DNA of 64,000 nucleotides from Ruditapes philippinarum. Lineage: Eukaryota. Every line of letters starts with the position of its first letter. Within the stretch, counting starts at the first letter, position 1. Below, one piece after another: positions 22,190 through 58,006 of the stretch. The DNA lies in the NCBI RefSeq assembly GCF_026571515.1, contig NW_026858824.1, forward strand, positions 248,001 through 312,000. The letters are read 5' to 3'. A model generated the notes under the pieces. That model was given only the letters and a program-made list of their open reading frames with translations, ran no database searches and was not told where the DNA came from. Both the position numbers and the translations under genes were made by a program.

Positions 22190-25100
22190 TCATTGTGCTT
22201 TTGGACTTTTATTAATGCGCCAAGCACCAAGAATATATCTTAAACGTATCAATAACAAGTCTCTACCCATCTGTAGCCAGCTCCATACTGGAATCATCTT
22301 GGAACCTAAAAGTAAATATAAAATATATATTTCTTCTACTAAACTCGTCATTCACACTGATGATATTCATTATCCTTAATACAACAATTAGGAAATAGAT
22401 ATCAATTCTGAGTGCATTGTTGTAGAATAATGCACGGTTTGAGTTCAAATGCGTAGTAATATAATCACGAAGGCCGATAGGCCTGAGTGATTAATTACAA
22501 AGCATTTGAACGAAAAACGTGCATTATTATACAACAATGCATGAAGAATAGATATCTATTTCCATTCTAACACGTCAAGAAAAAATATAATTATTATAAT
22601 AAAGTTGGACTTTATGTTTGGTGGATAAATTTGTTTTCGCCTCAGAGTTTCCAATAGAAACGTTCTTTAAAGGCTGTTCCAGTGGGTTGAAAAAAAACTG
22701 TCGTTAAATCTACCGTGTGTAGAAACATTTTGAGAATAACGAATTTTGAAAACGTTGATAAATCTTTGTTTGTTTATTTTATTTTACTCTATAATTTTTC
22801 AAGCGAAATACAAATTATTAAAAGTGAAATAAGTGTAAAACTTAACTCGTTTGCGACATTAAAATAGCGTACTTGATTTGATTGTTGTGCACGTGCTGTT
22901 TGGCGCTACATTGTGACGTCACGTAAACAACACTTTAAACGTCTGTACAGCGTTAACGACTGAATTAAAGATATTGGTGTTCGGATTAATTTTCTTAGTT
23001 AGACCATTTTCTTTCATTCTAGATAGTTTTCACAGCAAAATTCGACAAAAAATTGTTTTTATTTATCATATTTTTCAAACAAAATGGCGCCCTCAATGTG
23101 AAAATACACAGGGAGATGATAAGCACGGCGAGTGCATTGTTGTAGAATAATGCACGCTTCAGGCCTTCTTTGCTTATATAGAAAAATTTCCGATAGTGTT
23201 AGAATGATAGTTATAGGTAGTTAACAGTAGTACATGATGCTTAAATAAAACAAGGTTTCAAATTTCTATTCCACGAATTGTTTGTATATAATTTCTCATT
23301 GCAAGTATTTCCTTCAGTTAAATCTATCAATACAAAAGTCTTTACTTATAACATTGACTAAACAGTAAACCTATATGAGAATAGTTAAGAAAGAGGACCA
23401 TGTAAGAATGCTGAAGACTGATCAATCCATTTGTTCAAAACAAAAGCTTGAGTTTTAGGTATTTTCTCTTTATGACTCCAGTGACCCCTTGATACACCAA
23501 TTGAATATATTTCAAAAGGCTTGACAAAGGACCCTCTGAGGCTGCTACAAACCTTATTTTGCGATGTTCAGTTCTTTAATTCATAACATATAACACAGTA
23601 TCAAACCTAAAATACTTATAGCTCACTTTAAATCTTCTATTCTGGTAAGCTTATAAATGTCTTATAGTCAATAAGAAATATAGATTGCCCTTTACTTCAA
23701 AATATAAACAAATGGATAAATGTCACTTCCACTTACCCTCAATTTCCTGCCATGATATTGCCACCTCTCCTATTGGAATGTTAAATGTTTGAGCTAGATA
23801 TAACAAATCTACATCAAAAGCCCTGGAAAAAGAAGATTATGATATTACATTTCTAAAATTCAATGTAAAGCTGAATGAAAATTAGTCTTATTTAACTAAG
23901 ATACTGTCTGAGCATAGTATCTATTTTTTGTTGCTTACATCAACATAATGATATTAAAATCACTGAATATATAATTAAACTCATACAAGATTTAAATTCA
24001 AATGTAGAAAGTTACTTTACTACTTTTCAGCTATATTTGGAAGGAGAATAAAAATGTGGTTATCAGGATATGTCACTCTGTAAAACAGTCAGACACAACA
24101 TGGTAACTGAGAATACTTATAAATCTGTTGAATACAATACCTGCACTGTATTCATCTTATGCGAATTTTTTTTACAGAAAATGGAAAATGCAATGAATAT
24201 AACATCAATAAATCAACTTACCATCTCTCTACATGTAGATTTGAGAAAAGTAAAATAGCTGCCTCTCTTGTTAATAATTTAAATCCACACTGTGTATCTT
24301 TAACTCCTTTCACACACAGAAAATACACCAAGAAGTGAAAACCATACATTAAGACTGTTCTGAAAAATGATCTCTGAAACAGAAAGAAATTTAAATGAGT
24401 TATCTTATTTTCCTCTAAACTGTTTACAGCAAAATCTTAAAATGTTGGGCTAGAATGGTGTTTTGTTTCTAAGTTTTAATTAATTCAACTGAAAACAATG
24501 CGGGTAACTTAAATTCTATACTGTTTTGTTTTCTAATATAATATTAAGAGGTTTCTTTTAGGTTTTTCCTTTATTTACATCATGGGTCTGGCAATACTTT
24601 TATAGTATAAATGACCAGCAAAAAAGAAGCACAACCCTTGATACTTGATGTTGTGTCTATACTTATCACAAATCAATTTGAGAAGTTATGAAACACAAAC
24701 CTAGTGTTCAGAAAAAACAGTTTTAACATGCACCCAGACAAATCAAAAGGAAATAGGTGTATCAAACTTACAAATGATTTTAAACATGCAAACATTTAGA
24801 GACCTCGAGGTACTGAAAATTCTACCCAAAATATTCAACCTACTTATATGTAATAAGCAAAACTAGAGAAAATAATATCTAAGCATGAAACATAAAAATT
24901 TTACTTAAATGAATTTGCTGCAATTAAAGTAGCTACATGTCAGCTCACCTGTGCTATTGAATCTTTTTCTAAATGTGCACGAGATCCACAGACTACTGCC
25001 ATATTATCAGAATTTTTTTGCTTTGACAGTTCTGCCTCTAGCTTACTAAGATCACTAAATTTACTAGCACCATCTGCATCAGCAAACAAAAGTTGTTTCC

Positions 25101-28100
25101 CTCTAGCAACAAACATACCCTGTAAAACAATATAACCAGATCAACATAAATGTGAATATCATAGTTATAATAAGTATGACAAGTGGAATTTAAAACGTAA
25201 ACATCACTAGCAGATTAATCACGTCAATGTTTACAGAAAGGTTTTAGGTTAAAGAGCAAAATTAAGAACTTGCATACATTCAATTTTAAATACTTTCAAA
25301 TCACACTCATGCATTATTATCATCTTCAAATGACTTCTAATTTGCATTAACCATACAATATTAAAATGAATGCATGTATATATATATGAATTCCGTATTT
25401 TTCATATAAAATATTGATTTGCTCTATCTTGCAGTCCAACAACCCATATGCAAGTAGAAAATTTAGATAAACAGTCCAACCTTCAATAAAAGATGATAAA
25501 ATGAGAATATACCAATCGTATAGCACCTCCTTTCCCTCTATTCTTCTCTAGTGTAAGAACTCTCACTTTTTCTGTACCATATGTTTTACTGTATTTAAGG
25601 GCAGTCTGTAAAATATATACAAATTTGTTGAATAATCACATATTTATTTCAACTATATAATTCTGAATACAATATATGTGTATCACATATATGTAACTTA
25701 TTTTTTAAAATTAAAATTTAAATCTTAACTACATTGTTATTATTATTAAATCTTACTAGAAGACAAAACATTTCAGTTTTTACAGGCCCAAGCAAACCAT
25801 CTTGTGTTGAAAAGTAGAATACTCCAACACGTTTCCTTAATAAGACTGCAGTACTGTAATCTTAACAGTGTAAAATTTGAAGTTTTATTTACAGTAATAT
25901 CTAAATTCAGGCAGGAATTCCAAGCAATTAAGTTTCAAAAGATACAATTTGTGTACATGTATATAGAAATGTAAGTAAAGGGGAAATAACTCACCTCTGT
26001 GGTTTTATCAGTACTGCCATCATTCACTACAACTATTTCATAACTAAATGATCGGTTCTTTTTCTGAAATAAAATAAGTTGAATATATAGTTATTACCTA
26101 AAAGAAACTGCAAATGTTATTTAAATTCAAAGTAGATAAAAAGTAACTTAATTGACAAAAGTTCACAACTTCAGTCATAACTAACTTTAATGATACACGC
26201 TGCATCTGATTAGAAAAGTGTACATGTATAAATAACAATCAAAATGCTGAATTTAAACATCTATCTTTCAGATGGAAATTTTATATTTTCATTTTAGGTA
26301 AAACACTCCAGCAATAATGTTACATGAATTTTCAAAACATCTTTTATTAGACTTTTTTCTGACGTAAGACACTTTGTACTTGTATGAATGTGATATACAC
26401 AGTTTATACAAAAATAAGTATAGGTGTATAATTATATATGTACCTGTCTAGCTTCCAAGAAATCTAATGCTTCATCCATCATTGTAGGCACTGAAACAGA
26501 AACCATTTCTATAAAATCATAGATTTACACTTGTCACTGGTAATAAATCAATTACTCTTAAATTACAGTGCATAAAAAAGGATATTCATATTACTAACGG
26601 AAGTTATGGAATTTTGCCTTTTTTTTTTCTTAAGCTTTTCATATACCTTGAGAAAATTTATTTATGTTCTTTATGCCACAATTCAAAACTGTTCATTATT
26701 TAGGGGAGAAAACATGTAAGGTGCCAAATAGCTTAGTCGGTACAGCAGCGCAACAGTATTCCGAGGTACCGGGTTAGAGATCCAGTCAAGCTGCATATTT
26801 TTCTCACCCTGTGACATTTATTAGTAAATAATGATGACAATGTAAATCCTTCATGACTTAAATCTTTCTTACATCTCTCTTCCTCAAAGTATGCTGGCAC
26901 AATAACTGATAGGTCCATACTTGGTGGGTCATGTATACTTGGAAACCGGAGTTTCTCATTTTTCGATGGATCTTCATAAAATTTCTCACTTTCATATCTT
27001 CCAAGATTGGGATATGGTTTTGATGTTATATAAATTCCAATTACAAGCTGAAACAAGGTAAAATGAAAACATTAAAATCAATAAAATTTTAAAAATATAA
27101 CAACATTAACATCTTTTATCATAAAAATGGTATTACACAGCGGTGCATATATTTTGATGTGACATCAACTACTATATATAAATAAAAAAATATAGTGTAA
27201 AGACGCACAAAATGTTAGCCATACACTATAGGCACATCAATGAAAAATGGTTCATTTTTAACATTCTAGATTTTGGGTATGTGATAAATAGAATATTATA
27301 TTCTTGTAGGTTCATTACTGAATTTTTTTAAGTTGTTAAATAATGAAATATCATGGCATAATATAATTTTATTAAACTCTTTCAATAAATTCAGTATCAA
27401 ACCTACACTCATTCAATATCTGCTATATATCATTTTATGTCACACAATACGAAAGCTTGCATGTTTTGGAAAAGTATAAAGTCTTATTCAGAAGTAAATA
27501 TCAGCTGCAGCTGTAAACTTTGCTTTTAAATTTACTTAATATTCAAAATGCAAACTGTACACATTAACTTTACAAATAATTTGCATATTTTAGTAAAACA
27601 ACTTCATTACAGGTAACGTTATCAAAGACAAGCAATGTCATTTGAATTCATCATTAACAAGGACTTCTCTGACATGTTGTTGTAACTTTCACTTTAATCT
27701 TTTTTCTTTCAAAGATACTACAGTTACATAAAGTATTCTTATTGTTTGTAGTCTTTCAGAAGATCTAGGTACACCATGATGTATACAAGTTTTGCTGTCA
27801 AAGACATTAAGAAAAACAAAACCAAAACAGTTGTTCATTAACTTTTTACAAAACCCTTGAATTGACAGTAAGTCATTATGCTCAACTGTAGTCGGTGCTT
27901 GATAGTTTAACATCACAAACACTTGGGGGTCAGATCCTGCCCCTCAACGTGATACGCTCTTGTAAACATTCTTATCAAAAATATTTTAATATTTAAACAC
28001 GAATGGGACATCTGTTACAATGATAATCTTTACTTTATTGATACTAGATGGCAACTGGTATTTTTTTCATATGTATAAAAATAGTTTGAAAACCAGTTTG

Positions 28101-29821
28101 TATGCCCATTCGTGTTTAAATATTAAAAATATTTGATAGAGTGTTTACACATGTGACCCACAGGTGTCTGTGTTGAACATGAGCCCAGTGTAGCGTCATA
28201 ATTACATGGAATATATTTACTATAAGCTGGTTTAGTTATTGCCCTTTCCTTTTTCATCTCTTTTGAAACTCATTTGTAAATGTTCACTCCCCAAAATTTT
28301 GTTATTTAACTACAACTAATACTTGAGTCGAAGGTTCAATGTCTTGAAGCCTTTACAGTTTTGTTGTATATTTTCAATTGATGATTTGACATCTTAAGTT
28401 CACCCCTAAAGTATTGAATGATATATATACCAACCCTGTTTAAAGAATGAAAATTTGAGAAGCTTAGCTGCATCAGCCTGCTTATCATCATAATCAACAT
28501 TTTAATTTTCTTCAATATAATAAAGTTAATTATTATAATAGACTTAATTACTTATAATAAATGTCACCCTTCAGAACAGCTCATTATTTAATGGAAAAGA
28601 TGTGTAAGCAGCCGAATAGCTCAGTCTGTAGAGCTGTGGTACCGTATTCCGAGAGTCCTGGGTTCGAGTCCAATCGTCAAGCTGCACATTTTTCTTACCC
28701 TGTGGCATCAGGCACGCAACTGGGGACCGTGGCTGGACATAGCGTTTAATTAGCATTGCTCAGTAACCCTGAGGAATTCAGGACAATTTTCAATATAGCA
28801 AGGGAGTATGTCACATTTCAGAAAGGTTCAATATTTAGGAGAGAGAATGCATAAGCGACGGGCAGCACGAAATACCCAAATACACCCAAATATACCCAAA
28901 TATTGCCCAAATATACCCAAATAATGCCTAAATATACCCAAATATTGTCCAATTATACTAAAAATAACTGTTTTATACTAAAAAAGTGCTGTTTTAATCA
29001 TGAATACAATATACACTTTCACTAAGATATAATCAAACATACCCAAATATACATTTTCCTATCATTGTGTTTTGAACCAAGATACAGTATATGTACTCCA
29101 TTAAAGCTTTTTTTTAAAAACATGGACTTCTTCCTCTATTATGATATGAAATTTCAACAAAATTACACCTTAAAAATGTAAGTGTAGACAACAAATATCA
29201 TATCTTGAATTAAAATTGCATTCATAAGGAAGCGATATTGTGATAAGCAAATGTCACAACTTTATTTTCTTACAACATCTTAACTGCCCATTTCAACGGA
29301 ATGAATGAAAGTTATAGCAGGCTATGTCATATCATTTTATAAATATTTATTTATTTCTCATTATAATCTATACTTTATACAAAGAAAAATAAATATTGCT
29401 ATATTTGGGTATATTTGGGCAATATTTGGGTATATTTGAGTGTATTTGGGTATATTTGGGTATATTTGGGTATTTCGTGCCGCCGTAAGCGACTGGATAG
29501 CTCAGGCGGTAGGGCCGTAGTACAGAATTCGGAGGATCCCGGGTTCGGGACTCTGTCAAACTGCACATATTTCTCACCCTGTAACATAAATAATAATTCA
29601 GAAATCTATGATTTGGAACTGATAAAACTGTAAACATTGAAAACGATAACAATTACCCCACCCACCATAACGTAAAGTTGCATCAGATCAGCTGCGGTGT
29701 ATACCTTTAACAAATGCATTCAAGAAATAAACATATACATATATCTGACACTTACAACAACTAAAAACACTAAAGCCAGAACTGCCAAAGCCCAGAAAAT
29801 AGATGCTAACGTGATTTCCAT
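22190..29821 (-). CDS. ALG5: Dolichyl-phosphate beta-glucosyltransferase, 324 aa
   Basis: Exons 29821-29756, 27047-26873, 26490-26444, 26063-25995, 25605-25513, 25119-24949, 24373-24222, 23822-23737, 22305-22190; 975 nt in phase. N-terminal TM, LSVIVPAY, NDGS, NRGKGGA, FADADGA, GSRAHLE, DTQCGFKL, WAFDVDLL, WQEIEGSK, WLQMGRDL. Confidence 0.97.
22391..23206 (+). mobile_element. Non-autonomous element with one-sided long hairpin (tentatively Crypton-like) in the last ALG5 intron
   Basis: Hairpin 22391-22563; inverted ATTCTAACAC (22564) / GTGTTAGAAT (23196); arm sequence repeated directly at 23130-23156. Confidence 0.6.
26674..26816 (+). mobile_element. Solo LTR of tRNA-containing TRIM
   Basis: TGCCAC..GTGACA, 143 bp, A/B boxes inside, 4-bp TSD TTTA on both sides. 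Confidence 0.85.
27905..28178. mobile_element. MITE-like inverted repeat
   Basis: 27961-28007 and 28105-28149 are near-perfect reverse complements; weaker outer arms. Confidence 0.65.
28562..29586 (+). mobile_element. Full-length tRNA-containing TRIM (Helenus/TRIMp3-like)
   Basis: LTR1 28562-28707, degenerate PBS 28708-28727, PPT AGCAAGGGAG 28797-28806, LTR2 28809-29586 (144 bp without insert), TSD TAAA on both sides. Confidence 0.85.
28860..29485. mobile_element. Foldback-like MITE inserted in TRIM LTR2
   Basis: TIRs (G/C)GGC(A/G)GCACGAAATACCC followed by tandem AATATACCCA 10-mers; 8-bp TSD TAAGCGAC at 28852-28859 and 29486-29493. Confidence 0.85.
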
Positions 29822-30513: not shown

Positions 30514-31194
30514 AACTAGAACTGCCACTGTCATGGCATGAATACCCCCGCATACCACTTTGTCAGAATCAACAGTGGCCATTTAGAACTCAAGGACAAC
30601 CACCCGGCCAAATCTGAGGTTACTAAGCCAGTGCATTGCTAAGATATGTATTCTCCATGCTTCAAATGTGAAAATTTTAAAATCAAGTTTTTTAGTCAAG
30701 GCCCCTGTGACCTTGACCTTTGACCCAGTGACCTCAAAATCAATAGGGGTCATTTACTAATCATGACTAACCTCTATGCCAAATATGAAGACTGAGTCAA
30801 AGGAATATCAAGTTATTGGGCAGACAAGCTTTTTAAAGTCAAGGCCCCTGTGACCTTGACCTTTGACCCAGTGACCCCAAAATCAATAGGGGTCATCTAC
30901 TAATCATGACTAACCTCCATGCCAAATATGAAGACTGTGGGTCAAAGGAATCTCAAGTTATTGGGCGGATAAGGTTTTTTTAGTCAAGGCCCCTGTGACC
31001 TTTGACCAAGTGACCCCAAAATCAATAGGGGTCATCTACTAATCATGACTAACCTCCATGCCAAATATGCAGACAGTGGGCCAAAGGAATCTTAAGTAAT
31101 TGGGCGGACAAGGAAAAACTGACTGCGGGACGGGAGACGTCCGGACGGACAAGCTGTATACCCCCCTTACAACTTCGTTGAGCGGGGGTATAAT
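30514..31194 (+). mobile_element. HINE/Pearl-like element with three ~144-bp core repeats
   Basis: AACTAG head, subterminal ATACCCCC repeat, GTGACCTTGACCTTTGACC cores at 30695/30838/30983, GGAC microsatellite, 3' hairpin. Confidence 0.8.
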
Positions 31195-32017
31195 AAAGAT
31201 GTTATGAAAGTAAAGCATTGATTATCACAATTGCTTTTGCCAACTGACTTCAAAATCCCTTGATGCATGACAGAGTTATGGCCCAAACAAGATTTTCTTA
31301 CTGCTGATTTTTTATCTCTACATGTGACCATGGCCTTGGAGCTAAAGGTCTTGGGTATTACTCATAACACATCGTCTATCATGCTACACATTTGTGCCAA
31401 GTTATTTTAAAATATCTTGATGCTTGACAAGTTATTGGCTGGACAAGCTTTTCTTACCTCTAAGTGTGACTTTGAACTTAGAGCTAGGGGTCTAGTTCTT
31501 GCGCAAAACAAACCATCTCATTAAACTTCACAATTGGCTCAGTTATTGGAGTCATGGGCCAGAGAATATTTTCTAACTGTTGACCTTTGACCTCTTAGTG
31601 TGACTGACCTTGGAGCAAAAGGTCAAGGCACACTATCTCATCATTCTTAACATTTGTGCCGGGTTATTTTAAAATCCCTTGATACTTGACAGTGTTATTG
31701 ACTGGACAAGGTTTTCTTACTGCTGACCTTTGACCTTGGGCTCCAATTCTTAACATGACAAACCATCTAATTTTTGATGCTACATAGTTAGGCAAAGTTC
31801 TTTCAAAATCTCTTGATGCATGGACCAGAGAATATTTCCAGCTGCTGACCTTTCCTTGACCTGGAGCAAGGGGTCTAGGTCTAATGCTTGACACAATATC
31901 AGTTCTCATCATGCTGAACATTTGTGCCAAGTTACTCACGCATGCACACACACTTGGACAGAGAGGGTAACACTATAATTATGCGCCCTTGCTATTATAA
32001 TGGTGGGGGCATAAAAA
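31195..32017 (+). mobile_element. Older degenerate HINE/Pearl-like element (probably host of 30514-31194)
   Basis: Degenerate TGACCTT(T)GACC core repeats; ends GGGGGCATAAAAA; possible head GGATGCCCCC at ~30462. Confidence 0.65.
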
Positions 32018-32294
32018 TTCAATGTGCTGAGCTTTTCAAAAGTCAATTGGTGTATGTTTTGTATAAGTTGGTGGCTTTATCCTACACAAAGGTTGGTGGC
32101 TTTATCCTACACAGAGGTGATACATTGAAATTGAGAAACAATTGAGATAATGTTATGTAACAAAATCATGGTGTTGGAGCATGGGCCGCATTGCGTTACT
32201 AGGTAGTTTTATAATTTGTTCTGTGTAATCAGATCAAGCAATATTGTGCTGGTTTCTTGCATGTATACTCAGTGATAGCATATCAAATATTAGT

Positions 32295-33243
32295 AACAAG
32301 TGCACCGCTAGGCAGAGCATTATATGCCCGAAAGTGATTTTTTTTTTAGTAAAGATGAAGCATTTGTAAAACATTGGAATAAAATAAAGTATTACCTCCT
32401 TCAAATAACAATCCTCCTATGAAGTTTGAATATTGTGGTCCAAATGGAACTTAAGTTATCCCCCGGAAACTGTTTTCAGTTTTAAGGTAATAGTGACCTT
32501 GACCTTTGACCCAAAATCAATTGGGGTCTTCTACCTAATATGGACAATCATCCTATGAAATTTGAATATTGTGGGCCGAATGGAACTTTAGTTAGGCTCA
32601 CGAAACTGTTTTCAATTTCAAAGTAATAGTGACCTTGACCTTTGACCTTGTGACCCCAAAATCAAGAGGGTTCTTCTGCCCAATATCATCCTATGAAGTT
32701 TGAACACTGTGGGCCAAATGGAACTTAAGTTATGCTCCAGAAATTGTTTTCAGTTTTAAGGTAATAGTGACCTTGACCTTTGACCTTGTGACCCCAAAAC
32801 CAATAGGGGTCTTCAACCCAATATGGACAATCATCCTATGAAGTTTGAACACTGTGGGCCAAATGGAACTTAAGTTATGCTCCGGAAACTGTTTTCAGTT
32901 TTAAGGTAATAGTGACCTTGACCTTTGACCTTGTGACCCCAAAACCAATAGGGGTCTTCTACCCAATATGGACAATCATCCTATGAAGTTTGAACACTGT
33001 GGGCCAAATGGAACTTAAGTTATGCTCCGGAAACTAGTTTTAAGGTAATAGTGACCTTGACCTTTGACCTTGTGACCCCAAAATCAATAGGGGTCTTCTA
33101 CCCAATATGGACAATCATCCTATGAAGTTTGAATATTGTGGGCCAAATGGAACTTAAGTTATGCTCCGGAAACCAAATTGCTAACGGATGGACGCCAGGG
33201 GGTATAACATAATATGCCTGAAATTCTTTCGGGCATATAAAAA
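32295..33243 (+). mobile_element. HINE/Pearl-like element with ~5.5 core repeats of 136-145 bp
   Basis: AACAAG head, TATATGCCCGAAAG / CTTTCGGGCATATA inverted pair, cores at 32487, 32623, 32761, 32906, 33045. Confidence 0.85.
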
Positions 33244-34387: not shown

Positions 34388-36387
34388 AACAAGAGGGCCA
34401 TGATGGCCCTGAAATCGCTCAACTGTATATAAGTTCTTCACTAGAAGATATTTCATGATTAGTATCTTAATTCTAGCTCTTTGGATTTTTAAAAGAAGAT
34501 TTATTAAGTTTTTACTATACACATATAAGGAAAATCAATGACCCCAGGACGGGGCCAATTTTAACCCCAGGGCCCTTATTTGAACAAAATTGGTAGACAT
34601 CCATTAGAAAATGTTTTCATGCTAAATATTTAAGCTCTAGCTCTTAGGTTTTTTTTAAAAGATATTTTTAAAGTTTTTACTATATACACTACAGGTGTTT
34701 CATAATATGTGATACACTTTCAAATAATTGTTGCTTTACTGATTTTATAGCTACAAACAAAATGCTTATACCAAAGTAAACTAGACACTTCACCATTTTT
34801 AATGTAACGAAACTTACTGGAAAACGTTAACGTCATGACGTCATGTATGACGTCATTATTATCTGTTATTTTCAAGATGGCGTTGTCCATGGAAAAGTGT
34901 CAAGATATCATAAAATTGTACTATGAACACCATTCTATCATATCTGTAACTAGAAGAATGAGGAAAATGTACCCTGTCGAAAAAAGGGTGACCAGGCTAC
35001 AAGTAAGCAGAGTAGTTAAAAGATTTGAGCAGCATGGAAGTGCACTTGACCAGAGACACCGTAACCAGGGCCATTCTTTTTCCAAGACCAAGACTGAAAC
35101 ACCGAGACAATCAACAGTGACCGCTATTTGTCTCTTCTAAAATACAAGTTTCTGCCTGCACTCTGTGGGAAAGGGGTTAATATGACACAAACATGGTTTC
35201 AACAAGATGGTGCCGCTCCACACACGGCCCAGAGAGTTCTTGAATGGCTTAAAGAACATTTGACAAACAATTTATCTCTCTGAAGACGGAATGCACTTGG
35301 CCACCCCACTCTCCGGATCTCAGTCCTTTGGATTTTTTTCTTTGGGGCTATCTCAAGGACAGAGTCTACAAAGTGCAGCCAAAGACAAGAGATAACCTTA
35401 AACAGTCCATAAGATGTGAAATAAGAAAGATTACTGGTGACATGTGCAATAATGTGATGGAAAACTTCATGAAACGTGTTGAGATGGTGCGACGCCATAA
35501 TGGACGTCATTTTGAGTATATGCTATAAATGGACCCTGTTTTCAAGCGTAGCTAAAAATGTTATTGGTAGGTTTAATAAGGAAAAAATACACTTTTATAA
35601 ATGGACAGCATTTCCCTTTAATATGGTACATTTTTCATTATTACTGACATTCTTACATAAACGAAACATTTGATTAAAAGTGTATCACATATTATGAAAC
35701 ACCCTGTACAAATAAGGAAATCAATGACCCCCTGGGGCGGGGCCAATTTTGACCCGAGGGCTTTTATTTGAAGAAACTTGATAGACACTGACTAGAAGAT
35801 GTTTCATGCCAAATATTTAAGCTCTAGCTCTAAGGGTTTGTTAAAAGATTTTTTAAGTTTTTACTATATACATAAAGGGAAAAACAATGACCCCCTGGGG
35901 CGGGCCAATTTTGACCACAGGGCATTTATTTGAACAAACTTGGTAGACACCCACTAGAAGATGTTTCATGCTTAATATCTAAGCTCTAGCTATTTGGGTT
36001 TCTTAAAAGAAGATTTTTAAAGTTTTTACTATATGCAAATAAGGAAAATCAATGACCCCGGGTGGGGCTAATTTTGACCCCAGGGCTTTTATTTGAACAA
36101 TTTTGGTAGACACTGACTAGATGATGTTTCATGCCAAATATTTTAGCTCTAGCTCTTTCAGTTTTTTAAAAGAAGATTTTTTAAGTTTCAGTTCTGCATG
36201 GAATTAAATTCTGTAAACAAATTTTAAAGTTGGCTGCAAAAGGAACATTTCTGTGATATTTGGATAAAATTGGCTTTGCGTTTTATGAGGAGATGTCGTT
36301 AAAAGTAAAAGTTATGGACGAACGGACATCAGACGAAAAGTGGTCACAAAAACTCACCATGTCACTTTGTGACAGGTGAGCTAAAAA
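34388..36387 (+). mobile_element. HINE/Pearl-like element with ~163-bp core repeats, interrupted by a DD41D transposon
   Basis: Head AACAAGAGGGCCATGATGGCCC, tail TGTCACTTTGTGACAGGTGAGCTAAAAA, repeated AATGACCCC..GGGGCCAATTTTGACCCC units. Confidence 0.85.
34692..35706 (+). mobile_element. Tc1/mariner DD41D (rosa-type) transposon, internally deleted
   Basis: ~30-bp TIRs CAG(G)GTGTTTCATAATATGTGATACACTTT, TA TSDs; N-terminal HTH ORF from 34835; WFQQDGA..WPPHSPDLSPLDFFLWGYLKDRVY with 41 residues between the last two Asp after fixing one frameshift. Confidence 0.92.
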
Positions 36388-37793
36388 GGGCTTCTTTACT
36401 GTAATAATGCTTAAATGTTTGAAGATGCCATCCTAGACAGTGATTGTTTGCATTCATTTAATCACTGCAAAATTTCAGTCTTTTTTCACAAGTATGTTTA
36501 AATGAGTGTTTTCTGCTGTAACTGAAGTATTCCAAGCTATCAAAAAGGATGACTAGATTGAAAATACTGGTAAATTTGACAATATAAATTGACAAAATAA
36601 GGAAAAGACTATCGCTAAGTAAAATAATTAAATAATAAGAATGCCATTTTACTATCACTAAACATTAAATTAAAATATTTGAACTCAATACCTGTTTTAA
36701 AAGGGAAAATCATACAAAGTGCAGAATTAGGTATGCTAGATTAAGTATTCTTTTCCAAAAATCAAAAGCTTCCTTTTTGCAGTAAATACATAGATATATA
36801 CACTTTAAGAAAATTAAAATTCTAAAACAGAATTCTTGTGTCATCCGGATTATATGTGGATATCATGTTTTGTGTCATAAAAATTATGCTCCTTCTGCAG
36901 GCAAAATGTTACAATATAAAAAGAAAGTTCTCCCCATTTTAGTAATTTTAAACAATCTAGAAAATAAGATAGTTTAAGTATGGTCCACATAAACCACAGT
37001 ATAACAGCAAAGTACAAACTTAATATTGGAACAAGAGTAACAAAAACACATTGTCAAGATACGCAGTACATACTGTAAAACGTAACAATGTAACATAATG
37101 AGAATGCAACAAGATCAGATCTTACCATAATTATGTCGTCAATTTTACTTAATTATGTCATCAAATTTTAAAAAGTTGCAATGTCAACACATTTGGTGTA
37201 AAAGTCAATACCCTATTTAATTGAACTACTCTCATATAGTTACGATTAATATCAATAATATAATGTTTCATCAACTTCGTTAATGCATTTGAACATTTTA
37301 AAAACTGTTTTATCAAACCTGTGTTTATAGCGGAATATCAGTTCTATCAAATTGCACATTTTAAAACGATAATTCACCATTCAATTTTTTTAACATTTTA
37401 GTCTGCCAATAAAATTGAGTAAGGTCAGTGACTATAATTTTTATTATATATATCATACTTGTTATTCCCATAAAAAATTATGGATCTGACTAAATAAGAA
37501 GACATCCATGTAGTTACAAGGATTCATTGTAATCAATGTGATGTATAAAATGACTTTGTGTTTTCATTCAGAACCTAAGGACATAATGGCCTGAGAATTC
37601 TGTAGCTAAAAACAAAGCCATTAATAATTCTGCTTAATATGTGACATACAATATGATTTATATATAACTGTCAAACACTTTGTATAAATAATTCATATAA
37701 GTGACAAATATACAATTAATAGCATCAACAAAATTCAACAGATATTGTGTCTGACAAAATTATCTTGATTAATTAATGCATACAACATGTAAT

Positions 37794-37888
37794 AGAAAGA
37801 GCACCGAAACACGAGGCTATCTGATTTGTACGAGGGGGCATAACCCCCGAGTATTAATCAGATTGCCGAGTGTTTTGGTGTTCTTTCT
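37794..37888 (+). repeat. Long hairpin with two tandem GA/GA mismatches (probable element terminus)
   Basis: CAC-GA-GGC..GCC-GA-GTG and TAC-GA-GGGG..CCCC-GA-GTA. Confidence 0.7.
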
Positions 37889-38671
37889 CTTTTGTATCAT
37901 AGTCAAACAAAAGCACGTTCCCTGTTGTCACAATATGAAACCCCGGCAAAAATGAACCAATGAACGAACATCTGAATATGACATTTCTGCCGCTTTCCCT
38001 TTCTCTGCCGTCACAATATGTAAACCCCAGCAAAATGAGCCAATCAATGGGCATGCTCTGGAGTGCGGGTAACTAATAACCGCACTCCAGTTAACGCACT
38101 GTGCATATATATGTATACGATTTAACCCAGACACATTTTCAACAGAAAGGTCTCAAAACTATGATACAAGTACATTTATATACTGGTCAGATAAGGTGAT
38201 ATAAGATGTATTAAATCTACTCTATGTGCACAAAGCACATTTGTCTATATTACATTGTAGCTACAAGACACTGTTAAACGGAGTATATTGTGCTTTAATT
38301 TAAAACATTTGAACACGCTAAGATAAAAATACAAAAATCAAGATTTGGTATGTAAAATCAATAAAGAAGTATCATAATATTTGAGTTAAAGGGCAGTTTT
38401 AGTAAAACCAATGAAATAAAATATCATCTTAGGAACAGACCTGCACTGGATCTTACATTGAAACACTAAAATTAGCTGCTCTGTAAGAAACCATTCTAAA
38501 ATGTTATAACAGATAATGTTTTCTACTTAAATTTAATACTAATATTATGACATACAGGATGAAAACATTATGAAAGTTATTGTCAAAAAAGTAACAATAA
38601 TTTTTACTCAATATCAGTTATAGTACTACAAAGCAAACTACTTAACATGTTTGTACTATATTATTCTTCAA

Positions 38672-39422
38672 AGTGACATTATGCCTATAAAAGTGTAGAT
38701 GGTCAGTGAACATGTAAAATCAAGATTCTAACACGACCCGAATTTTTCCCTATTGAACATAGAAGAACCGAAAGTGTGTGTTATTATGCAATAAAATCAC
38801 TGTTTGACGTTCTATATTTAGACATGTGACGTAATCATTATACACGTGACGTAACCACTTAAAATGTGACGCGCTGACAATAAGTACGGAAACAAATCAG
38901 ACGCAATTTAGCTAATTATCATGTACGGCAGCATTTATTTGTTGATGTCGTGTTAGAATCGAAATAATATATCCAAATCGATGATTTTATTGCTTGATAA
39001 CATCACTGTTTGTCGTTCGGATGCGCATCATTATATCACTCGGGCTACGCCCTCGTGATATAATTCCCCGCATCCGAACTCCAAACAGTGATGTTATTGA
39101 GCAATAAAATCACAGTTTAGGATATATTATTTCTTAAATAACTTGACATTTTGCCATAACTGTGTTTAATTTTATATTTTATTATGAAAAAATAATCAAT
39201 TATCCACTTGACCAAAATTTCTATAAATATCAGTGTATCGGTAAAGCTAAGTTCTTTAAAAAGTGGGGCAGTCTTTTTACAATTCTGGTACTTTTATATT
39301 GTATCATAAATATTTTCTTGATCATTTATTGGTCAATCACCATTATAATATATAGTTTATTGAAATATATTGCTAATTCAACCCAATTTGACAATGAAAA
39401 AAAAAATTAGCATAATGTCACT
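38672..39422. mobile_element. Kolobok-like MITE (related 3' end at ~63830-64000)
   Basis: TIR AGTGACATTATGC / GCATAATGTCACT flanked by TCAA and TTAA. Confidence 0.55.
38724..39133 (-). mobile_element. Non-autonomous one-sided-hairpin element (tentatively Crypton-like), nested in the Kolobok-like MITE
   Basis: GATTCTAACACGAC / GTCGTGTTAGAATC inverted pair, hairpin 38961-39133, same layout as 22391-23206 in opposite orientation. Confidence 0.6.
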
Positions 39423-40445: not shown

Positions 40446-40611
40446 GAGCCAGTCTGATCAGGATCCATGCTGTTCCCTATCAGTCTCTCTACTTGTTATA
40501 GGGTTTGTAAACAAACAGCATAGATCCTTATCAGGCCAAGCGGATGGGCAGGCTGGTCTGGAGCCATGCTGGTCACAAACACATTATGTTGGTTTTGTCA
40601 TGGCACAGCTC
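40446..40611. mobile_element. Sola-like palindromic MITE, internally deleted copy
   Basis: GAGCC..GCTC termini, TSD AAAT. Confidence 0.8.
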
Positions 40612-41467
40612 AAATATTCTTGACAGAGTAACTACAGCAATACAATTATTGTATGTAAAAATTGATCTAGATGTTTGTATGTTTACAGTTGAAAATGACC
40701 ATATTTTTATCATCAGAAAACGTACAGATATGTAATGAATATTTTATAATGTAATGGTAGCTTTCAGAGGTATTTTGATACAAACAGTGTGGTAAAATTG
40801 ATATCCCGCAACACTATAGGTTGAAGGAGATATCAATTTTCCCACCCTGCAAGTAGCAAAATATAAGCTTCAAAAAGCCACTACAAGACAATTTTCTATC
40901 TATTGCACACCTTTACCGACAAAAGGATATTCAATTTACTGAACTTTTATTAGTTATTTAAGAAACAGAATTATAGCTGTCATGAAATAAAATTCTTGAA
41001 TGACGGATGAATAAATCAGCATTGTAGAAGAGGTCATGCCCAAAGTTGCATCAATTTCTGTTTCCAAATACCAAGTAACACACAAGCAAAATTGGATCCA
41101 GATAAATAGTCTGGCACTTCCAGATATGGTATTTGTCACTAACATCTTACACTTATTTCTGTGTGTTGGAATCAATTTAATGTTTGCATTTATTTTACGG
41201 AGAAAAATTGACAGGCATATAATATACATTTATCTATATTAAATCCCATTACCATATGAAACTTCAAGCCCTATTAGCGATAAACTCTACGGATGCCTAC
41301 ATACATCAAGTAAATAAAATTTGGGTAAAAATCTAAATAAAACATTACAATTCTGCCTTTTTAGTATGAGCAAATATCAAATACAACTGTTAAAGCTATA
41401 TTATGTTAATATTAACATAATATATGGTTCTTTTAGAAATCTAAAATAAGTATGATTATTTTGCACA

Positions 41468-41606: not shown

Positions 41607-42430
41607 AAAATCACTTCATTGAGAATAAACTGACCAGATCAAGCCAGACTTGGCACTGACCAAATATTTTGGAATAAATAATACTTAAACCAGTTTATCA
41701 TTAGAATGTTGCAAAAGTCATTTTTTACTTAATATTATATTATTCAAATCACTAGATCTATATGTAAGGACATCCTTTATTGTTTAATTTGAATAAATAA
41801 TACATTCTTTCCATATATAAAAATATCAACAATAGTTAGTATCTAAAATATAATAAGTCAGTTCTACATGTATTGAACCTTGTTAAAAAGTTAATAATTT
41901 TTCAATCCTAAAAGTTCATGTTCCTACAAAAGTAAACATTAATATCAAGATATGGAGTTGAGTTTGAGGTATATTAATAATTTAGGTATGTTTAATTTAT
42001 TTACCCTGACATATCTTTAAAGCCTTACTCTGACATTTCTTTAAAGCCTTACTCTTCTTAGCTAAATTTCCTACCCTTTGATGACTTACAACCCGATTTG
42101 TTCACATAAGTCAGAAAAAAAGTCATTAAAACTTGAAAATTCTTACTTTTGTTGAATTATGAATATATATTACCAGTACCTTAACAGAGGTACTTTTATT
42201 GTCAACCAACAGAATAAAATCTTCTTTGTATGTGAAAAATATAAGGACTAACATGGCCTAAACTCAATGTTCACCAAATCTCAGTGACCCTATTATAACA
42301 AATGATAACTTGTCTTCATGACCTAAGTTTTTTCATCATTTCCAAGTTAACATAGTAACTGTTGAGGAAGGAATCATCCTACACCAATATATCTAACATA
42401 GAACAACTACAACCTTCATTAAACAAATAT

Positions 42431-42665
42431 GAGCCGCGTCACGACAAAACCAACATAATAGGTTTGCGACCAGCAAGGATCCAGACCAGCCTGCACATCC
42501 GCGCAGTCTGATCAGGATCCATGCTGTTCGCTATCAGTTTCTCTACTTATAATAGGGTTGGCTAGCGAACAGCATGGATCCTGATCAGACTGCGCGGATG
42601 CGCAGGCTGATCTAGATCCATGCTGGTCGCAAACGCATTATGTTGGTTTTGTCGTGACACGGCTC
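42431..42665. mobile_element. Sola-like palindromic MITE (235 bp)
   Basis: ~100-bp TIRs, GAG..CTC termini, 4-bp TSD ATAT. Confidence 0.9.
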
Positions 42666-42696
42666 ATATGTTAAATCACATTAAATATTGTATAGT

Positions 42697-45600
42697 TTAG
42701 TCATGTTTACTTCTTCCATTGCGTATAGGGTATCTGTTGCCATTTTTCACGGTTTCAGGTTGAATGTCAGCTGCTATGAGGGTTTTGTCACAGAACTCGA
42801 GGTAGCCAGTCACATGATATCCCATGTTTGCATATGCTATCATATACTCAAACACTGAGAATATACTGAAAGCTGTAAAAAGGAAAAGTGTATTCAAGTA
42901 TTACTATTGAATAATTGAAATTTATAAATGACCCGCGTCACGACAAAACCAACATAATGGGTTTGCGACCAGCAAGGATCAGAACCAGCCTGCGCATCCG
43001 CACAGTATGATCAGGATCCATGCTGTTCGCTTACAAACCCTATAACAAGTAGAGAAACTGATAGCGAACAGCATGGATCCTGATCAGACTGCGCAGATGC
43101 GCAGGCTGGTCTGGATCCATGCTGGTCGAAAACCCATTATGTTGGTTTTGTTGTGACATGGCTCAAATATGTATACAAGCCCTATATTATACGGTCTTTA
43201 CAACATTCATGACATCAGTTATACAAGTTGCTGACTGTAAATACTGGAAAATATAGCCAGATAAGATAAATATGACCTGATGAGGTAATCAAGTGTTATA
43301 TTTATGAATTTATAATAGTGCAGATTGTTATTGATGACAAGTTCATATAAAAACACCAGCAACTTTAGACAGTTTTCATCAAAGGGCAGGGGAAAAGGTG
43401 CACATAAAGAATATGACGTCAGATATTCAACTGCTACATATCCATCCATAAAAAAAAAAATGTTAAGTCATATATTTAATCACAATCAAACATCAACAAG
43501 AATGGAATCTGTATAAGGAAGTGTCTTACTTTTTTCTAACAGATTTATTCATGGTTAAGGTAACAACATTCTCCTATTTCACCTTTCTTTCAGACTTTGA
43601 AAACAAATTTTCCTTTTTTACAATCAAATAAGAAATACATTAGTTTGTTAAGAAGTAAAAGTAGTTTATAAAACATATCAAAAGAACTTCAAGCATATTA
43701 TCTATTCATGTATGGTAATTTAAGTGTGTGTTTTTTGAGTACAAGATAAAGATGAGATGTATATATGAGCAGCGTCACGACAAAACCAACATAATGGGTT
43801 TGCGACCAGCATGGATCCAGACCAGCCTGCGCATCCGCGCAGTCTGATCAGGATCCATGCTGTTCGCTTACAAACCCTATAACAAGTAGAGAAACTGATA
43901 GCGAACAGCAAGGATACTGATCAGACTGCGCGGATGCGCAGGCTGGTCTGGATCCATGCTGGTCGCAAACTCATTATGTTGGTTTTGTCCTGACGCGGCT
44001 CATATAATAACTTACCGCCTGGTATACAGTACACTCTATGCTGAACAAAATAATAGAGAAGGCCAACAGTTGACAGGCTTATCCATGCTAACATTACTTT
44101 CTTCCAGAAAAATGATTTCTTTTCCTACAACAATACAATTTTCACAGCTGTTTCAAATTCATAAATAAATTAAAAAAACATTAAATACAATCTGGAGAAT
44201 TTTTGATATGTTTAATATGGCAGAATAATCATTTATGCCAAGATTATGGTAAAGTATATGTCAAATATTATGAGAGTTTTTGGCCTTGATGTAATACTAA
44301 AATGGACAGTGTAAAAAGTCAATCTGTTCATTCTCTGCCACTATCCATAGAATTCACTCATGTGACCAATGCAAACCAAGAGTTTTTTTATTCAAGTTTA
44401 ACAAAATATCAATTAAATTTCAATTAAGTGCAAAAATGAAATTAACTGAATTTATGACATTTAAAAGGTTATGGGAATAAATCACTATGAATATAGGATT
44501 ATCCTCATTAATTAATTAATTGATTATTATATTGTTTATTAAGATAACTCACTCTATCTGTCATAGGTTTATGCCTGGACCATCTGTACAATGTTGTTCC
44601 AAATACCATATGTGCAATAGATGTTATCATAAACACAACAAATATTTTTTCATGAAGAGCTGAAAAATAAATGTCATAACCATCATGTAATATAAATGAT
44701 CATTCTGTGAAATTCACCTTTTTCAAATATTGTACCCACTATTATCTGTAATTTTCTGGTATTTTCTGTAATCATCTTTTAAAATAAATAATCTGAACAT
44801 ACAAATTACTATGAAATAGATCAGTTGATGGAGTTAAAATATTATCATAAGGAAATCATGGTTTATAAAGAGCTGTTGGTAGGACTCAAAACTGATTGAT
44901 AGCAAAACAAAGAGTCTGAATAATGTAGAATTAAGTTCACAAAGGACCGTAATTCTGTTAGAGTTAAGGGCCTTGGTCAGTGACCTATTCTGCTCTCAAA
45001 TAAGTTTTTTTGTTGTTGGGTAACAAAAAATTTTTTTGTTGGGTTATGTCGCACAAAAACACAGTATATGTCATATAGCGACTTTCCAGCTATACTGGTG
45101 GAGGAAGACCTCGGGTGCCATCCATGCATTATTTCAGGCACGATGGGGCACTTTAGTAGAACCACTGTTGTTCTATAAGCTGGCTGGATAGTTTCCTCAC
45201 ATAAAAGAATCCAAAGTCCCTGATGGGGCAAGTGGTTTGTAGTCAACAACCTCAACCACTTTGCCATGGACTCTCAAATAAATGTGTGAAGTTTCAACCC
45301 ATTCCCTCCTGTAGAATTTTTTGGCGATATCCTAATTTACTGAACCAAAGTGTGTTGGCAAGCCCAACGCCTGAATAAGTACAATATCTCTCCCTTTTCT
45401 TTGATTAGTCAAGTCAAAACAATGAGCCAAAAGTTGATTTAGTAAGAAATCTAAGATATTAAGAAAAGAAGATTTTTCTTTGATAGATAATGATAACCAA
45501 AGATATGTGTCTCAGCACTTCTACAAATAAACTAAATGACGTTTGACTTTAAAGATATAAAAATCATGTGTATACTCACGATAGTTTTCTTTATTTGATA

Positions 45601-48600
45601 TACAGCTGACAGCCAACAAACATGAGCATTCTATAGTGTAAAGCCAAAAGCATAGTCTCATTAAAAACTTATATAATCCTTGAAGATTCTTTTTTATAAA
45701 TGGTAGGCTTTTCTTGTAGTAATTATAATACATGATTCCAACAAAAAATCTTGGTGTTGAATGTAGTCCTATACATATTCTCCACACATAAGCTTGAGGT
45801 TTAACTCCAGTCACAGCACTCACTGATGGTATATTGTTTGTGACCTACAGAAATGAAACAGATTAACAAAATTATTTTTTTAAAAATATTCTTATTGAAG
45901 AAATGAACAGAATGCATGTTTTATAAGGATAAATACATTTTCCATTAATTTGATATTCTTTGGATAGATTTATGTAAGTATGTTAATCAGTCTGTCCTCT
46001 TGTATGTTTTTTTCTGCTTTTTCAAGCACTGTTTTAAATAGAGATTACACTACACATGTATTTACGTTCAGGCCTTTTCCCAGTGTCATCATACTTTTCA
46101 GAAATTATGATTTTAAAAGGAAAAGCCAATGGTAACACTGAAGTTTGTAAACAAATTTTAACAGGCAAATGAAGACTGTAATCAGCTTGTGTATAGGCTA
46201 CGTCCCAGTGTTAGACCTTCAAAAAATCAATAGTTCTTGTAAACGGCAATTGGAAGATCTTCCCATCTAATCAACTTTTGCAGTTTTGACTTCGCCGTAC
46301 ATTAGGTCTGTCATTTATACAAGGGTTATCATTTAATAAAATCATGAAAACATCCGTTATATGATGCGTAATATACCCTTACATTCGGACTGCTACTTAA
46401 AGCCATGTTTGTTGATTTGATGTTGATGCTCAGCAACCTAAAGGCTGAGTTTCACATGTAAATAGGAAATGTACCCATGATTTCGCTTATTTTGGTCGTC
46501 TGGACACCAAAATAAAAACATGAGTCAACATGAAACCCATTTTATTAAGGAAATGAAACTATTTCATTTATAAAATGCAGCTTTAAATATGTAGTGAACT
46601 CAGTGTCTATTTTAGTATTTGAAAAACAGGGGGGATTTTTATCGAAAAATGAGAATTTGTTACATTTGTTGATCTTTTCCCTTCTTTCTCTATGTAAAAT
46701 TTCCCCCTGCCTCTGAAAATATATGGGGGGGGGGCATTCTCAAAATATGACTGAATCTCTCCCATCCCGCCTCCTAGAATACACTCTGGTGAACTCTTTT
46801 ATGATCTCAAAGATTTGCAAGCAATTACAAGCAAATGCCTTCAAATGTTAACAAGATATATGTTGTTAACTTGTACTAACAGACCTTGTACATAAATCTT
46901 ACTTTATAGTGATTAGTCAATTTGGTAGAAAAATTAAAGGCAACAAGGAAGAAACATGTTTAAAGTAGTGTTACAGTTCAGAACTGATACTATAAAGGTT
47001 GGAAGATGTGTAAGCTGCAAATGCTTAAGTTGGTATAGTCGCAGAACAGTAATCAGAAGGTCCCGGGTTTGAGTCCCGGTCAGGCTGCATATTTTTCTCA
47101 CCCAGTGACATTTGGCGCCCAACAGGGAACCATGACTGCATATAGATTAGCATAATGTTTCATTCATATTGCTGGGCCCTCAATATACCAAATCTGTGGC
47201 TGAATACTGTCACAGGAATATTGTATGTTAGCTGCACCATTTTCTGTTTCATATGGTTTGATATTTGTATAGATGCAACAGGAAGACTAGTCTTCAAAAT
47301 GTTTCACAATAGTTGTTTTAAAAACAAACAAGAGCTGTCGGTAGGACAGCACGCTCGACTATTCTAAGTGCTTGATAGTAAAAGAGCCTTGATAATGTAT
47401 GATTTTTTAAGTTCACAAAAGGGCTAATTTTTTTTATAAATTCATGTTATAGGCCTTAGAGAGAGTCTAATTATATCCTTCCGAATAGTCAAGGCAATAC
47501 TGTATAAATACAGTATTGCCTTGACTATTCGGAAGGAAATGTCACAAGGGTATTTTATTGAGTATAATAATACTAATTACCTATGAATACATAAATTTGA
47601 CAGAAAAGGTACAAAGGCTTGTTATTAAGATGTTTTATCAAGTAAATCACTGCTTTGTTATCATGAATGCATAAAATTGTCCCAAAAAAACCCCTTAAGT
47701 AGTTATTGAGATAACAGCTTACAAGCAAAACTTTACCATGAATTTCTAAGTTGAAAAAAGGGGAGAAAAATCAGCCTAAATGCAAGATAGAATTATGGAT
47801 CTTTGTCAGTGACCTACAATTATGACCCTAAATGCATATGAGAAGTTTTAAATAAATATCTTTAATAGTTATTGAGATATGTAAAACTTGCATGTAAACA
47901 TTAACCAAGAGACTAAGTAGAAAGGGGATATGAATCAGCCTTAATGCAAGATGGAGTTATGGAACTTGGTCAGTGACATACAATTATGACCCTCCAATTA
48001 TGACCCTAAGTGCATGTGTAAAGTTTCAAGTAAATATCTTTGAAGACCTTTAACCTTTAACCAAAATTTCTAAGTTTCAAAGGGGCAAATAATTCTGCAA
48101 ATATTGCAGGCAGAGTTATGCAATTTTGCAAACTGATGTACATTGTTACTATAAAAAAGTATTTTAAATTTCAATTGAATATCTCGAGCAATAATTGAGA
48201 TATTTGACTTTACAAAAAAACTTTAACCAAAAAATTTCTAAGTTCCAAAGGGGCATAATTCTGTCAATATTGTAGGCAGAGTTATCCAACTTGTCAATCT
48301 GATGTACCTTGTTACTATAAATAAGTAATGTAAGTTTCAATTTAATATCTCAAGCAATAATTGAGATATTTGACTTTACAAAAAACTTTAACCAAAATTT
48401 CTATGTTAAAAAGGGGCATAATTCTGTCAATATTGTAGGCTGAGTTATCCAACTTGTCAATCGGATGTACCTTGTTACTATAAATAAGTATTGTAAGTTT
48501 CAATTGAATATCTCAAGCAATAATTGAGATATTTGACTTTACAAAAAACTTTAACCAAAATTTCTAAGTTAAAAAGGGGCATAATTCAGTCAATATTGTA

Positions 48601-55504: not shown

Positions 55505-55860
55505 CTCGTTTAAATACTTTTAACCAGATCTTAGCGTTCAATTCAGTAATATTACCTCAAAATAAGAAGCGTTTCACGTTCCCTTCTAACAGGAAAAGTG
55601 CCGAATGTAACCGCAAATTAGATTGGATAAAAACTGTTCCGTAACATCTTGTATAGGTTGAGTACCACTATATAATTTCCTTCAACCCATCACTTTTTCG
55701 AAATATTAAAGTCTGACACATGAGTAAAGAATATAAAACTTTATTATTTTATTATCATGTTATCATCTCGTTTCCTCAAAAAATTTCAATTTGTTGTGTC
55801 GTTGCCACAGACACTCTGAGGAGCTCCAAACGCCTTAAAATCCAAATAAATTGTATATTT

Positions 55861-56526: not shown

Positions 56527-56681
56527 GAGAATAATAGAATCTATCATTGGGTTAGATAGAGGATAGGGAAATCCCAACCCGAGGGTGATCGGTTCTATCG
56601 GGAACGAGCCTTGGCGAGTTCCCGATGGAACCGATTGCCCGAGGGTGTGGATTTCTAACCCAATGATTGATTATTTTTCTC
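56527..56681 (+). repeat. Long hairpin with two tandem GA/GA mismatches (probable element terminus)
   Basis: GGGAAC-GA-GCC TT GGC-GA-GTTCCC at 56600-56623 and a CCC-GA-GGG pair. Confidence 0.7.
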
Positions 56682-58006
56682 ATTCACCTGGACACAATAA
56701 ATATCAGTGAAACTAGATCTACTTGCTACGCCCTAGTTTTGAAAAGCGGGGCGGGGCTTAGGCACCTGACGTACGTCCACAAAAAATTCTACTAATCAAG
56801 TTTATGTGTGGATAATTCAATGAAAATAAATAATGAGATCCCTCATAAAATAGCAAGGTTATCATGATAAAACACATCAATATTAAAGTGGGAAAGTGTC
56901 ATAATATAAGTGTTTATAAGGAATTCAGTCCAAACTTAAATGGTTGCCAAAAAGCGTTTACCGTTTGCAAAGATTTATTCGTTTATTTTGGCCGAATATT
57001 CAATTAAAATATATCAAAATGAGATTTGTCATCAAGAAACATCGTTATCACAACAGAAATTCAGGAAAAGTGTCATAATATCCGATTTTACGAAGAATTT
57101 TGCAATATTTTAAAGTGTGCAATTTTTAGTAACAGGTCAATATTGAAAAGGGTGGACCTAGGTAGAGTAGGACTCATCAATCTATTTGGGTTCCGTGGAC
57201 CATTAAACAGATTAGCTCACACATTTTTAATACATTTTGACCTTTTGACGTTTCCTTTTTTTAAAAAATAGGAGTGAATCGCGTATGTGTAGGAATACGT
57301 TTTTAGAAGTGATGCACGTTGAGTGTGAGATAAGCCCATGTGAGATAAGATTTTCCGACACCGCTATTTTTAGTAACATTTACGAATTTTTCTATCTGGT
57401 TGATGAGAAAATAATAGGCAGAACTGAAAAAAATGGAATTTAGAACTTGCATCAGGAGCCGGCATATCAAAGACAAATATAAAAAAGGCATATCCTATAT
57501 TTATCTCTGAATACTGCCACCCCTCTGGCAATAGTTATATACAGGAAATTAGTGCGTGTCGGATTGTTTGTAAAAGGTGAGGCAGGACATTTATTCTATT
57601 CATGGTTAAAATGTTAATAGTGAAAGAAGATAAAGGATAACAGAGTTTAAGACAAGTACTGCAATCCTACTACTGCCCGTTTGGCCAGGTGGCAATGTAG
57701 CTAGGAAGTTTATTATAATATAATGCCATGTGTGAAGAAAGGGTACTTTCTTGGTAGTCAGAGGAAACCTGTATTTGGCGTAGGGATAAGGGGTGCATAT
57801 GTTTGGTTAAACTATGTAGGGCTTGCATGGACACATGGTTGGAGATTAATTGCAACTACCGTAGATTATGGTATATCTTATATGAATATGATGAGTCTAC
57901 AGTCCAGTCTGCAATGTTTAAAGGATCACCAGCCCAGTTCTTCCTGCATGGCTGTGATACTGATGAGAGGGGTGTAATCCCTTTTTACTTATCGTATTGC
58001 ACTTCT

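Follow-up and report, generated by a model that had tools for sequence, protein, structure and literature searches.

The window, i.e. the whole stretch of 64,000 nucleotides of Ruditapes philippinarum DNA that was analysed, contains four long hairpins with a total of six GA/GA mismatches, all of them found where a sequence-only reading had placed them. These hairpins are the ends of four dispersed, high-copy, non-coding repeat families, named here A, B, C and D, with the GA/GA strand being the forward one in families A, B and D and the minus one in family C. Read on the GA strand, the four families have a common layout, in which a hairpin of 100-190 nt comes first, followed by a site of 10-14 bases and a non-coding middle, and the far end of the element is the reverse complement of the site behind the hairpin.

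The family A element is 817 bp long (22389..23205, forward strand) according to the copy alignment, with loose read ends before 22388 and behind 23205, and it is non-autonomous, its longest stop-free stretch being 77 aa and no coding frame being present. Its long terminal hairpin (22391..22563, forward strand) consists of the arms 22391-22460 and 22494-22563 plus an apex (22463..22492, forward strand) made of a stem, the GA/GA mismatch (GA at 22469-70 and 22485-86), a 5-bp stem and a GATA loop. The internal site (22564..22573, forward strand) matches the far end in reverse complement; hairpin base and site together amount to the joined-ends junction copied in inverted orientation. The terminal 10 bases of the far end (23196..23205, forward strand) are identical to the far ends of family C and of a 3.39-kb element, L238. 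Furthermore, the arm bases 22410-22439 are directly copied near the far end (23130..23159, forward strand; positions 23-52 and 743-772 of A), where they possibly represent an accessory binding site.

The other three elements are likewise non-autonomous. Family B (381 bp, 37789..38169, forward strand) starts with a hairpin at about 37790-37890 that presents GA/GA twice (37813-14 with 37868-69, and 37832-33 with 37849-50), and its internal copy of the far end comes after the hairpin; the loop has decayed in the window copy, while most reads show a GTA loop. Family C (412 bp, 38725..39136, minus strand) is related by internal deletion to the CryptonA element of L238 (and likewise of L110 and L237), and its apex (39030..39064, minus strand), with GA/GA, a 4-bp stem and a GTA loop, is identical in L238; on the forward strand the mismatch appears as TC/TC at 39040-41 and 39053-54. 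Family D (about 878 bp, 56532..57409, forward strand) has a hairpin at about 56532-56683, also with two GA/GA mismatches (56581-82 with 56641-42, and 56606-07 with 56616-17), and is older, with about 80-85% identity to other D copies. The hairpins had initially been taken to be unrelated; this does not hold for A and C, which have 70% identity over 161 bp of hairpin and the terminal 10 bases in common and, judged from these sequences, are distant relatives. Copies of the families were searched for by scoring the best 40 candidates per search. In one public sequencing run, the read depth reached about 750-2500-fold in A and 1000-3100-fold in B and C, most flank bins being at 0-5, with sharp edges at 22388/23205 (A), 37787-89/38169 (B) and 38725/39141 (C). 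No joint removing A at the window locus appeared among the read-mapping rows listed.

Further repeats are present in the window. A frame at 1437-2834 with reverse transcriptase-RNase H, integrase zinc finger and integrase core corresponds to a Gypsy-type retrotransposon fragment, and overlapping open frames lie at 49778-52769, with a weak aspartyl-protease match in 50975-52396 (E=0.004); the segment 50970-51114 is repeated at 53337-53481. Repeats resembling tRNA-derived SINE heads were recognized by eye at 26709-26783, 28597-28671, 29478-29572, 47018-47096 and 49585-49679, and no tRNA was called by ARAGORN in the window. Moreover, units of about 135-165 bp are repeated in tandem at 30714-33175, 34439-36189, 48065-48719 and 58359-59233. 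Finally, a near-perfect palindrome family of about 243 bp without GA/GA appears at 42427-42669, 42924-43170, 43762-44006 and 55855-56099, and in part at 40450-40617; it is probably an ordinary foldback element and was used as a negative control.

The frequency of GA/GA was established with a strict scan for a short stem, a two-by-two mismatch and at least 6 outer pairs, all ungapped. GA/GA accounted for none of the 9 two-by-two loops in three shuffled sets of 400 kb, for 2 of 11 in 400 kb of real fixed-offset regions, and for 20 of 31 at 40 recombinase loci, so GA/GA hairpins occur above chance. In family A, the mismatch was kept in 542 of 579 genomic apices, and among the first 100 listed, two had turned into perfect pairing and five had one change; hence a family consensus perfectly paired at these positions, which would have contradicted the sequence-only reading, was not found. 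At L094, L325, L331 and L356, individual copies have an inverted apex or have GA/GA turned into perfect pairing, which is consistent with conversion from arm to arm.

The mismatch context, described earlier as C-GA opposite GA-G, is more exactly pyrimidine-GA-purine, since the second half-site of A reads T-GA-G. This context was found in 182 of 186 half-site counts of a fold-based scan, in which copies are not independent, and it is the one where tandem G.A pairs are reported to be sheared and stacked across strands (available text of PMC10085684 and PMC11014236). In addition, among 37 distinct apices, counted with variants and chance matches, 20 are closed by a GNA or GNNA loop; mini-hairpins with these loops are described as very stable as DNA and far less so as RNA (PMC13037366, in the part available). 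However, the claim that only one strand folds well was overstated according to the energy model, where the GA strand is ahead by just 2.0-5.2 kcal/mol for whole hairpins and by 0-0.8 kcal/mol for the apices (DNA parameters), and where the junction of C shows no GA-strand advantage (-74.7 vs -74.9). Sheared pairs may be undervalued by this model.

The two ends of an element were further considered in their joined form. An exact head-to-tail junction of A was found 13 times, and natural junctions of A, C and the recombinase family Y2 fold into a single stem that continues past the joint and reaches the internal site, two additional bases bulging out on the junction strand. When the ends were joined by script, the inverted junction copy beside the hairpin fell two bases short of the junction in 11 of 11 families (A, C, the parent of C, Y1, Y2, B, D, Y3, Y4, Y10 and Y12), the offset being based on natural tandem junctions in three families (A, C and Y2) and inferred in the others. 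The ends were taken from empty sites for Y1 and from flank variation for B and D, while for Y3, Y4, Y10 and Y12 they were set partly by analogy and the offset is weaker. This inverted copy of the joined-ends junction beside each hairpin, with its constant two-base offset, is new here.

Empty paralogous sites showed that A and C have one T in common with the target, with no longer duplication, and no classical terminal inverted repeats, as is characteristic of CryptonA. The flank before A resembles the element's own far-end arm, with T at -1 in 38 of 38 flanks, A at -3 in 33, T at -4 in 28 and T at -6 in 27, some tandem copies being included among the 38, while the bases after the joint vary freely. 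Such target likeness can itself account for tandem copies; the 13 junctions of A can therefore be explained by self-targeting and are not proof of circles. A rule pairing the base that directly follows the cut with the internal site was considered and rejected, as it fits A (G in 16 of 38) and fails for C (3 of 27).

An element coding for a recombinase was found for one of the families. L238 is a 3.39-kb element with both ends of C and the remains of a recombinase between them, and it is 85% identical to C over the first 297 bp, the apex being identical, and 93% over the last 81 bp. L110 and L237 are damaged relatives of L238, with L110 matching DUF3504 (E=3.7e-17) and Phage_integrase (E=7.9e-7), and the recombinase is frameshifted or truncated in the parent copies of C. 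The frames inspected inside L238 and L110 contained a DUF3504-type tyrosine recombinase, with neither reverse transcriptase nor DDE transposase. Family C thereby presents both ends common to an autonomous and a non-autonomous element, as required of a CryptonA derivative. The link to Crypton tyrosine recombinases proposed from the sequence is thus directly supported by the recombinase-coding parent of C and by the similar hairpin that ends many DUF3504 elements. The search for autonomous partners succeeded for C (L238/L110) and failed for A, B and D, with none among 80 recombinase loci; B and D share the layout alone with recombinase elements. The recombinase adjoining two A copies in L266 was discarded as a parent of A, as its relatives are bounded by ends of their own and do not match A, and these two A copies are insertions. 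Overall, the identity as a CryptonA derivative is nearly certain for family C, very likely for family A and likely for families B and D.

To place these ends in the genome, matches to DUF3504 were collected, amounting to 149 in the 150 scored as the best of 393 candidates, and 80 loci from the same genome were read, the last 20 of which had been picked as relatives of one family. At the first 40 loci, the strict scan found 12 antisense GA/GA loops and one sense downstream of the recombinase domain, and six sense and one antisense upstream of it. In the fold-based scan, an antisense GA/GA hairpin lay within 2.3 kb downstream at 34 of the 80 loci and a sense one alone at 3, while control windows had a GA/GA hairpin in 2 of 160. 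Copy alignments showed that the hairpin is the element end at recombinase loci. Grouped by recombinase sequence, 12 of 26 clusters had the antisense downstream hairpin (12 of 18 among those with at least two members), and the remaining 14, including the intact-looking L086/L087 and L104/L105, did not. In two clusters (L108, L113, L114 and L116) the hairpin is found upstream, GA being on the sense strand of the gene; the gene can therefore lie in either orientation between the ends. Insertion of these elements into one another or into members of their own family is frequent, and the resulting nests and tandem or inverted arrays were observed at L066, L095, L110, L266 and L268.

A foreign set comprised 83 loci on metagenome and genome-bin (MAG) contigs, 36 of which offered 900 or more bases of downstream sequence. 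In 12 of these 36 loci, the fold-based scan found a GA/GA hairpin on the antisense strand no further than 1.3 kb downstream, and in none a sense one alone; the strict scan detected a downstream apex in just 1 of 32, since the hairpins carry several closely spaced mismatches. The fold-based scan gave no antisense downstream GA/GA hairpin at 46 of the 80 own loci and at 24 of the 36 foreign ones. On viral contigs, a related recombinase was confirmed for 0 of 42 pattern matches. The CryptonA-type recombinases L386, L387 and L388 appear on short contigs of bacterial genome bins, which probably represent host (animal) contamination.

In particular, L091 codes for an intact recombinase of 488 aa with the residues R-K-H-R-H-Y. 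The catalytic residues were retained in 21-22 of 22 aligned proteins, including the R-H-R-Y set that characterizes CryptonA, and the closest named relatives belong to bivalves, other molluscs and cnidarians. A PDB sequence search with the recombinase returned QRICH1 as the sole match (E=2.3e-11).

The anatomy of the ends suggests, with somewhat more confidence than doubt, that the elements move as one folded DNA strand on which the recombinase exchanges a single strand. The GA strand, once unpaired by replication or extrusion, would fold with the help of sheared G.A pairs and of GNA or GNNA loops, and the far end would then pair with the internal site, so that both ends meet on one stem with the two-base offset adjoining the joint. 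Tyrosine-recombinase sites have their arm on the 5' side of the cut. With the far-end arm as its binding place, the recombinase would exchange one strand at the joint and free a single-strand circle with a double-stranded junction; the same strand would subsequently be exchanged into a target resembling the far-end arm, with replication resolving the product and at most one shared base being left. A role of GA/GA as a putative structure-coded signal on single-stranded DNA would fit the anatomy well, in view of the sheared-pair context, the GNA loops and the inverted junction copy with its constant two-base offset. Paired changes between the arms can also result from arm-to-arm conversion without selection on structure.

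Among the alternative explanations, it is unlikely, while deserving serious weight, that these CryptonA derivatives follow classical double-strand recombination through a double-stranded circle, with the hairpin and the junction copy acting as accessory sites or as an extruded cruciform that joins the ends. Such a route is the published model in the available text of PMC13565253 and PMC3212892, and it agrees with the nearly equal folding of both strands in the energy model and with the arm segment repeated near the far end, as expected of accessory sites. However, one base common to end and target, with free variation past the joint, is poor for two strand exchanges, and the placement of GA/GA and GNA loops on one strand and the constant offset of two are left unexplained.

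An improbable variant accepts a single-strand intermediate and assigns the apex a role as a priming origin or as a repellent of SSB, the circle being made double-stranded before integration, as proposed for DIRS. The constant two-base offset falls right at the joint, where the recombinase would be affected, and no polymerase or Rep protein was encoded in the frames examined, although the apex does lie about 75-95 bases from the joint, outside the usual recombinase footprint. The accessible parts of the literature offer precedents for such a role, namely mini-hairpins at single-strand priming sites with poor SSB binding (PMC13037366), and the internal complementary region of DIRS, which is required for transposition in a model that turns the circle double-stranded (PMC7192593).

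Much less credible is the movement of these repeats as non-autonomous Helentron/Helitron2 elements by an HUH Rep-helicase, even though such elements are described as having asymmetric terminal inverted repeats and a 3' hairpin and as entering T-rich targets without duplicating them (PMC3627910 and PMC4067079, as far as available) and Helitron genes are numerous in the genome (94 matches). A tyrosine recombinase is enclosed by the ends of C, and the ends of A-D were absent from 170 kb at 37 Helitron loci, a small sample of which 7 loci were read 10 kb downstream. Moreover, a GA/GA hairpin was found in 1 of 28 Helitron windows, its ends resembling recombinase family Y2, and the HINE palindromes described in the text available are of 5-10 bp, compared to arms of 50-90 bp here.

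The possibility that GA/GA persists neutrally, through palindrome decay or common ancestry, is remote: A and C are related and the apices within a family are copies rather than independent events, but GA/GA stays constant while the stems differ across many families, the perfect-palindrome family of the same window has no GA/GA, and although some copies have converted to perfect pairing (2 of the first 100 A apices listed, and L094), the mismatch is kept by the family majorities. An RNA-level role for the hairpin was considered less likely, though conceivable: relative to the recombinase gene, GA lies mostly on the antisense strand, and the loops include several of a type other than GNRA, but RNA parameters likewise favour the GA strand.

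CryptonA and its derivatives were already known, while no description of ends with hairpin, GA/GA and junction copy was found in the literature searched; palindromes may be described in Repbase Reports, Dfam notes, subscription papers or bioRxiv supplements. According to the available text of a 2026 review, Crypton transposition is undemonstrated by experiment and its model assumes a double-stranded circle (PMC13565253). With L091 as an intact enzyme, the ends defined here, which specify exact substrates and predict both the cut point and the strand, make the mechanism directly testable, and their layout is a practical signature to classify many unassigned palindromic repeats. If exchange of one folded strand is indeed how these elements move, folded-single-strand recombination, known from bacteria, works widely in animals, and domesticated DUF3504 proteins (ZMYM, QRICH1 and KCTD1 types) may descend from a reader of folded DNA.

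Compared to known systems, the elements agree with CryptonA (Kojima and Jurka 2011, PMC3212892) in the DUF3504 plus Phage_integrase domain, the single recombinase gene, the many short derivatives, and in having neither classical terminal inverted repeats nor target duplication, and they differ in their GA/GA terminal hairpin, asymmetric inverted repeat and inverted junction copy. In the available part of that source, no terminal repeats were found for animal Cryptons, two supplement rows being marked 'n.d.' (PMC3212892). The 4-6 bp terminal direct repeats of fungal Cryptons have no equivalent here, where one invariant base and a degenerate likeness over about 7 bases appear on one side; a 2026 CryptonA paper describes the fungal repeats as variable or poorly conserved, and its accessible text contains neither 'circular' nor 'single-strand' (PMC13465315). 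Eulor5/6 are also classed as Crypton derivatives (PMC5753468, in the part available).

Two HUH systems are similar in their ends. Helitron2/Helentron HINE elements, in the text available, have asymmetric terminal inverted repeats, a 3' hairpin, T-rich targets and tandem copies (PMC3627910, PMC4067079), but their enzyme is an HUH Rep-helicase, their hairpins are short and no joined-ends complement is described there; asymmetric terminal inverted repeats with a 3' hairpin are also present here, and this layout, being common to Helentron/Helitron2, is not diagnostic. IS200/IS605 elements likewise have strand-specific hairpin ends and a single-strand circle, but they are bacterial, use the HUH enzyme TnpA and present small hairpins at both ends (PMC13565253, as far as available).

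DIRS-1 is a tyrosine-recombinase element whose internal region is complementary to both termini, as is also found here, and whose single-stranded intermediates have been demonstrated, according to the available text of PMC7192593. In contrast, as a retrotransposon DIRS-1 carries a reverse transcriptase and long inverted repeats, neither reverse transcriptase nor long inverted terminal repeats being found in L238, L110 and L091, and here it is the base of the hairpin at the element's end that forms the complement, offset by two bases.

Lastly, by analogy with integron attC (PMC2727003) and CTX attP(+) (PMC3442271), the end layout would suit a folded single strand as the substrate of a tyrosine recombinase. 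In the accessible text of these sources, both sites show little sequence conservation and undergo one strand exchange resolved by replication, with the strand of attC being chosen by unpaired bases (PMC2727003) and attP(+) being formed by folding and integrated via one exchange (PMC3442271). Both differ from the present elements in being bacterial and experimentally shown, tandem GA/GA is not the determinant described for them there, and the terminal structure of attC plays no part in strand choice. Overall, we consider it an even question whether animal CryptonA is the eukaryotic counterpart of integron and CTX-phage recombination, in which one strand would leave as a circle and enter through a single strand exchange, with a structure code (sheared GA/GA, GNA loop and two-base offset at the joint) being read instead of a sequence.
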